Shown here one piece after another: positions 20,480 to 20,596 of a stretch of 64,000 nucleotides of DNA (position 1 is its first letter; each line of letters begins with the position of its first letter). The translations under genes and the position numbers were made by a program. Source of the stretch: Escherichia coli (lineage in GTDB: Bacteria; Pseudomonadota; Gammaproteobacteria; Enterobacterales; Enterobacteriaceae); assembly GCF_024298765.1 (NCBI RefSeq), contig NZ_CP101210.1, one strand, 5' to 3'. The notes below the pieces were generated by a model. The model saw only the letters and a list, made by a program, of their open reading frames with translations. It searched no databases and was not told the origin of the DNA.

Positions 20480-20489
20480 GTCCGTGCGC

Positions 20490-20562
20490 TGCCTGATGCG
20501 ACGCTGACGCGTCTTATCAGGCCGACGGTCGGCCGGATAAGGCGTTTACGCCGCATCCGGCA
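20490..20562. repeat. REP elements within the cai operon (caiA-caiB spacer)
   Basis: CCTGATGCGACGC...GTCTTATCAGGCC and GCCGGATAAGGCGTTTACGCCGCATCCGGC motifs. Confidence 0.6.
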
Positions 20563-20596
20563 GTCATGCGCTACATAAATTTTTCAGGAGCTAATA

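Follow-up and report, generated by a model that had tools for sequence, protein, structure and literature searches.

The spacer between caiA and caiB in the window (the whole 64-kb stretch of Escherichia coli DNA that was analyzed) contained a y REP and, in inverse orientation, a z2-like REP, which together make up a single E. coli REP unit of probable BIME-2 type; its identity as a REP pair was secure on its sequence. The element is of an ordinary, long-known kind. Its linker allele in this strain is found in a minority of genomes, and its foot haplotype is rare. Paired REP palindromes at this site had been proposed by the first-pass annotation, and the proposal was borne out by two consensus matches and by the hairpins found in a repeat search.

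Identity and anatomy of the REP pair

The cai operon lay on the plus strand of the window, with caiT at 17792-19306, caiA at 19337-20479, and caiB at 20597-21814, followed by caiC, caiD, and caiE. Gene names were taken from the RefSeq annotation of the strain 104 chromosome, which was 100% identical across the region and which also gave the caiA product as crotonobetainyl-CoA dehydrogenase. The caiA-caiB spacer comprised exactly 20480-20596 (117 bp), and the REP pair was wholly extragenic, flanked by the caiA stop (20479) and the caiB start (20597). The locus was present in 5,331-5,332 of 5,426 complete E. coli genomes. The RefSeq MG1655 record annotates no repeat feature at the caiA-caiB spacer from which a catalogue name could be taken.

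REPs were located with the consensus pattern GCCKGATGCGRCG-N3-12-CGYCTTATCMGGCC, allowing at most three substitutions. The pattern matched seven times in the 64-kb window and was absent from each of 30 second-order Markov simulations; the two matches in the spacer, at 20491-20523 (plus strand) and 20531-20561 (minus strand), had no mismatches. The repeat search recovered the individual hairpins of both REPs as well as pairing between the two. The REPs were inverted and arranged tail to tail, with cores 7 nt apart and feet reading GGCCGAC-G-GTCGGCC (Table 1). The left flank resembled one half of the linker that joins REPs head to head in the tandem arrays of E. albertii and other Escherichia. 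The sequence was also repeated widely: in the median E. coli genome, a 201-nt query spanning the spacer matched at 24 places.

The y-type REP was recognized by GCCTGATGCG...CTTATCAGGCC, and the BIME family definitions (y, z1, and z2, with the short S linker) were those of PMC3333891. The second REP was assigned tentatively to z2 over z1, from its GTAAAC loop and from the shortness of the linker; the BIME-1-like pair at 51627-51731, in contrast, had a GTGAAC loop and a long linker. Mismatches were present in both stems, as one unpaired base per stem side in the y REP and as a 2x2 internal loop in the z REP; a stem mismatch is required for binding by TnpA_REP. The best Rfam match was naRNA4 (RF02564, the only REP-derived family), which aligned over its full model to the minus strand at 20490-20562 (E = 3e-8) with a score of 51 bits, below the gathering threshold of 59.5, and all Rfam matches were sub-threshold.

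Table 1. Features of the caiA-caiB junction in the window
Feature	Position	Strand	Basis or remark
caiA stop codon TAA	20477..20479	+	ORF 19337-20479 and RefSeq match
Long hairpin of the whole unit	20479..20572	+	predicted, -55.3 to -55.7 kcal/mol; z relative to shuffles about -4 to -4.8
Left flank GTCCGTGCGCT	20480..20490	+	pairs with right flank in the long fold (MFE structure)
y-type REP GCCTGATGCGACGCTGACGCGTCTTATCAGGCC	20491..20523	+	consensus match, hairpin; alone -20.6 kcal/mol
y REP foot tetranucleotide CGAC (canonical CTAC), variant G at 20524	20523..20526	+	allele alignment
Tail-to-tail linker, single nucleotide G	20527		alignment; K-12 counterpart is the 12-nt GGGAGCACGAAT
z REP foot tetranucleotide GTCG (canonical GTAG), variant C at 20530	20528..20531	+	allele alignment
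z2-like REP, inverted; minus-strand reading GCCGGATGCGGCGTAAACGCCTTATCCGGCC	20531..20561	-	consensus match; alone -19.5 kcal/mol
Right flank AGTCATGCGCTAC	20562..20575	+	20562-20572 pair with left flank
caiB Shine-Dalgarno AGGAG	20586..20590	+	6 nt before ATG, outside hairpin
caiB start codon ATG	20597..20599	+	ORF and RefSeq annotation

Other REPs occurred elsewhere in the window. A second REP pair was found at the 3' end of the cai operon (24935-25019), where a degenerate z-like REP at 24935-24965 started 4 nt after the caiE stop and an inverted REP-like palindrome at about 24982-25019 preceded a convergent minus-strand ORF (25050-25550) in the K-12 position of caiF. The BIME-1-like pair mentioned above consisted of a z REP and a y REP separated by a 41-nt linker with the IHF-site-like sequence ATTCAATATATTG. 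A head-to-head z/y pair at 901-980 lay between convergent ORFs at 217-876 (plus) and 994-1902 (minus).

Linker and foot alleles within E. coli

The spacer had been described in the first-pass annotation as differing by about 11 bp from that of K-12, and the difference proved to be exactly 11 bp, with 117 bp in the window versus 128 bp in MG1655, in which caiB ends at 39115 and the caiA stop begins at 39244. An alignment of six alleles assigned all 11 bp to the linker that joins the two REPs. The K-12 junction read CTAC-GGGAGCACGAAT-GTAG and that of the window CGAC-G-GTCG, and the length difference was thus that between a 12-nt and a 1-nt linker. The K-12 linker was unique to the caiA-caiB locus: 3,706 genomes had it, each at a single place. 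Alleles in the 5,426 complete genomes were separated by the identity band of the 201-nt query: the short-linker form (identity >=95%) was found in approximately 961 genomes (ca. 18%) and the K-12-length form in approximately 4,408, while 86 genomes fell in the 80-90% band. Further E. coli spacers measured 118 and 127 bp. In a 139-bp allele of E. coli USDA-ARS-USMARC-51688 (L002:500-640), the 5' arm of the y REP was lengthened by a tandem duplication of 11 bp, CTGATGCGACG.

REP copy number, compared across strains, was one unit in all sampled E. coli alleles. At the same locus, E. albertii (L008:2225-2500) had three tandem y-z units in a spacer of 273 bp, and a second Escherichia representative, labelled E. 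coli SCPM-O-B-8794 (L007:2193-2500), had 3.5 units in a spacer of 305 bp; every tail-to-tail junction in both arrays was the canonical CTAC-G-GTAG. Linker and copy number are known to vary among strains in BIME-2 elements (PMC3333891). The 11-bp linker difference, worth ca. 3 kcal/mol on the predicted long fold, is probably minor functionally.

GTAG/CTAC is the conserved foot tetranucleotide of REPs (PMC3333891). K-12 keeps both CTAC and GTAG, whereas the window allele had CGAC and GTCG in their place, an allele-level loss in what is, on its sequence, an otherwise unmistakable REP pair. Foot haplotypes were counted with allele-specific 42-mers in the 5,426 complete genomes. CTAC-G-GTCG was carried by 515 genomes, CGAC-G-GTAG by 135, and the CGAC-G-GTCG of the window by 73, many of which came from poultry; the canonical CTAC-G-GTAG was found in about 0-1. 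The T to G change at 20524 and the A to C change at 20530 occupied mirror positions of the palindrome center, so that the double mutant restores the pairing broken in each single mutant, and its predicted long fold was -55.3 kcal/mol, versus -52.7 and -51.8 kcal/mol for the single mutants. The single-mutant feet nonetheless outnumbered the compensated one, which argues that foot pairing is not strongly selected, and any such selection was weak at best. Templated correction of the quasi-palindrome, or recombination, would explain the double mutant equally well. The window and a CGAC-GTAG strain differed over 201 nt solely at 20530, and the A-to-C change therefore seemingly arose on two backgrounds; recurrent or templated mutation, or recombination, seems to have produced it.

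TnpA_REP is reported to need GTAG and to cleave between the C and the T of CTAC (PMC3333891). Since GTAG and CTAC were lost on both strands, the window allele may be refractory to this enzyme. In E. coli PK-F-10132 (NZ_CM148383.1, L092:150-1575), the caiA-caiB BIME was interrupted by IS621, an IS110-family element. Its insertion point coincided exactly with the CT in the foot of the y REP, the flanks reading ...ATCAGGCCT before the IS and CTACGGG... after it, and at this target the window allele read CG in place of CT (20523-20524).

Structure and possible function at the caiA-caiB junction

The predicted mRNA-strand fold of 20470-20605 reached -55.7 kcal/mol (z -3.96), and none of 200 shuffles folded as well. 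The flanking 11-nt motifs also paired in this long fold, which began at 20479, directly at the caiA stop, while the y stem itself started 11 nt after the stop (20491). The alternative fold of two separate REP hairpins was predicted at about -43 kcal/mol in context, and the two-hairpin form would be the likelier to arise first during transcription. The caiB ATG, like the Shine-Dalgarno sequence, lay outside the predicted structure.

REPs have been described as mRNA decay barriers and attenuators (PMC12306157), and the general statement of the first-pass annotation, that REPs inside operons can stabilize upstream mRNA or attenuate transcription, is established in that literature. Its more specific suggestion was that the pair may set the stoichiometry of caiT and caiA versus caiBCDE. 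The most likely effect of the pair is the classical one, a block to decay with perhaps some attenuation, and the chances are about even that it favors caiT-caiA over caiB-E. The REP unit would be transcribed within the caiTABCDE mRNA and would fold there either as two hairpins of ca. -20 kcal/mol or as one of ca. -55 kcal/mol. Such a structure could block 3'-to-5' exonucleases, and some factor-dependent attenuation might occur at it, so that the upstream mRNA for caiT-caiA would persist longer, or be more abundant, than that for caiB-E, with caiB still being translated freely from its own exposed ribosome-binding site. An effect of the REP pair on cai mRNA or protein ratios is one that we infer. 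A literature search on the caiA-caiB spacer found no RNA-seq, 3'-end (Term-seq), Northern, or protein-ratio data. The cai genes were absent from the anaerobic REP-stability study, the text of the Citrobacter proteomics report gave no usable ratios, and the qRT-PCR of Arense (2013) was normalized to the wild type for each gene, giving the polar effect of a caiA deletion only and no caiT:caiB ratio.

A CaiB scan of species-representative genomes returned 80 loci, and caiA was directly upstream of caiB in 79. The spacers compared (loci L007-L086) lay just upstream of position 2501 in most. Across the 79 representatives, the spacer had a median length of 104 nt and a median MFE z of -3.24, with 81% below -2; by genus, the median z was below -2 in 17 of 24. 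Long spacers may owe their length to an insertion, which biases this comparison. In most genera the first paired base of the MFE fold, a noisy measure of where structure starts, lay about 0-12 nt from the caiA stop. The hairpins after caiA were non-homologous between genera. REPs occupied the junction in Escherichia, Citrobacter, Salmonella, and Pseudocitrobacter, numbering from one to seven and differing in class, number, and order, and unique hairpins, some of them followed by a U-run, were found in Proteus, Providencia, Edwardsiella, Phytobacter, Trabulsiella, Atlantibacter, Ferrimonas, and Shewanella. The Proteus hairpin (eight sequences) kept its pairs through two-sided compensatory changes, such as UA to GC to AU. 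The sole unstructured spacers were two of 20 and 27 nt. This positional conservation of structure after caiA fits the classical REP role. However, the caiB-caiC spacer (21815-21886), chosen as a negative control, was also structured (median MFE z -2.14 in 70 species), with a hairpin of consensus GCGCTRRCC...GGTTAGCGC that was homologous across Enterobacteriaceae. Structure at caiA-caiB was therefore not special, and the comparative argument became less specific. The lack of a U-tract directly after the caiA-caiB hairpin and the excess of single-mismatch foot alleles over the compensated one also weigh against the classical role.

The same position close to the caiA stop could also have the opposite consequence for CaiA. 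According to Liang, Rudd and Deutscher (2015), as summarized in PMC12306157, a gene is translated less when a REP follows its stop codon by fewer than 16 nt, and the 11 nt that separate the y stem from the caiA stop fall within this range, as do the starts of structure in most genera. Terminating ribosomes would then stall near the caiA stop and the mRNA would be cleaved, reducing CaiA output. The RepRanger supplements examined had no caiA entry, however, and the distances in other genera share the noise of the first paired base, and we regard this effect as possible but doubtful; it could coexist with stabilization. A comparably tentative reading is that the pair is a neutral, selfish or hitch-hiking repeat of the kind that gathers in tolerant gaps, with no regulatory consequence for the cai operon. 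The differences in REP arrangement among the four REP-bearing genera, in which either order occurs, indicated repeated turnover at the junction. The polymorphism of linker length, foot sequence, and copy number within E. coli is typical of BIME-2 (PMC3333891), and the locus tolerates the IS621 insertion. Neutrality is harder to reconcile with the REP-free genera, which keep a unique hairpin at the same position, with compensatory substitutions in Proteus, and with the restriction of structure-free spacers to the two very short ones. A further reading, in which the stem-loop after caiA is a selected "punctuation" of the cai operon across Gammaproteobacteria, we consider unlikely. Mobile REPs would repeatedly have replaced an ancestral unique hairpin in this role among Escherichia, Citrobacter, and Salmonella, and the window allele would have kept its RNA fold while becoming immobilized and protected from insertion. 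The symmetric foot change would restore pairing at the center and remove the CT dinucleotide of the y foot, which is both the IS621 insertion point in another strain and the reported TnpA_REP cleavage site.

A role at the level of DNA appears improbable; the BIME-2 unit would here be bound and cleaved by gyrase to relieve supercoiling within the operon, or would contribute to nucleoid organization. Gyrase cleavage sites are over-represented in BIME-2, mainly at y REPs, and independently of transcription, but only a subset of BIME-2 is cleaved, and the cases highlighted, such as sucC-sucB and tldD-yhdP, are multi-unit arrays (PMC6379681), whereas the caiA-caiB locus has a single unit. It is very improbable that the pair divides the operon into caiTA and caiBCDE as a canonical intrinsic (Rho-independent) terminator. 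The hairpin is strong and GC-rich and a T5 run follows at 20580-20584, but this run lies at least 8 nt past the hairpin foot, with no U-tract directly after the hairpin, and the terminator scan found no site in 20480-20596; this candidate was rejected. An internal promoter upstream of caiB, which would be needed to restart transcription after such a terminator, was also rejected, as the consensus scan of the same spacer found no promoter-like site.

Significance and likeness to known systems

Intercistronic REP and BIME elements, their variation among strains, and their possible effects on mRNA have long been described, and the present case has little import beyond annotation; the pattern across genera and the changes in the feet are minor curiosities. 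Should the element indeed tune CaiT and CaiA relative to CaiB-E, it would be relevant to the engineering of E. coli for carnitine biotransformation, and it would bear on the conversion of carnitine to gamma-butyrobetaine by gut E. coli. The occurrence of unrelated hairpins at one operon junction across genera provides a test case for whether REPs are recruited for a pre-existing structural role or simply tolerated.

Among described systems, naRNA4, which derives from the REP325 BIME cluster, matched the unit in sequence and structure over its full model; the match was sub-threshold, and it reflects common REP sequence rather than the REP325 locus. The stabilizers of malE-malF and hisJ-hisQ (Higgins 1982; Newbury 1987) are alike in having REP hairpins just past the upstream stop in an intercistronic spacer, with a downstream gene that has its own ribosome-binding site, and the analogy to cai is positional only. 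The stop-proximal translational REPs described by Liang, Rudd and Deutscher, such as that of nrdAB, are, as summarized in PMC12306157, alike in their distance from the stop. Close likeness was also seen to the BIME-2 elements of E. coli. The cai locus departs from these in holding a single unit instead of a tandem array, and in the mutation of both foot tetranucleotides in the window. It agrees with them in its inverted, tail-to-tail, extragenic, and multi-copy REPs, both of which match the consensus perfectly, in a short S linker whose 1-nt spacing in the window is that of the CTAC-G-GTAG junctions of E. albertii and other Escherichia, and in a number of units that varies at the locus, from one in E. 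coli to 3 and 3.5 in other Escherichia.
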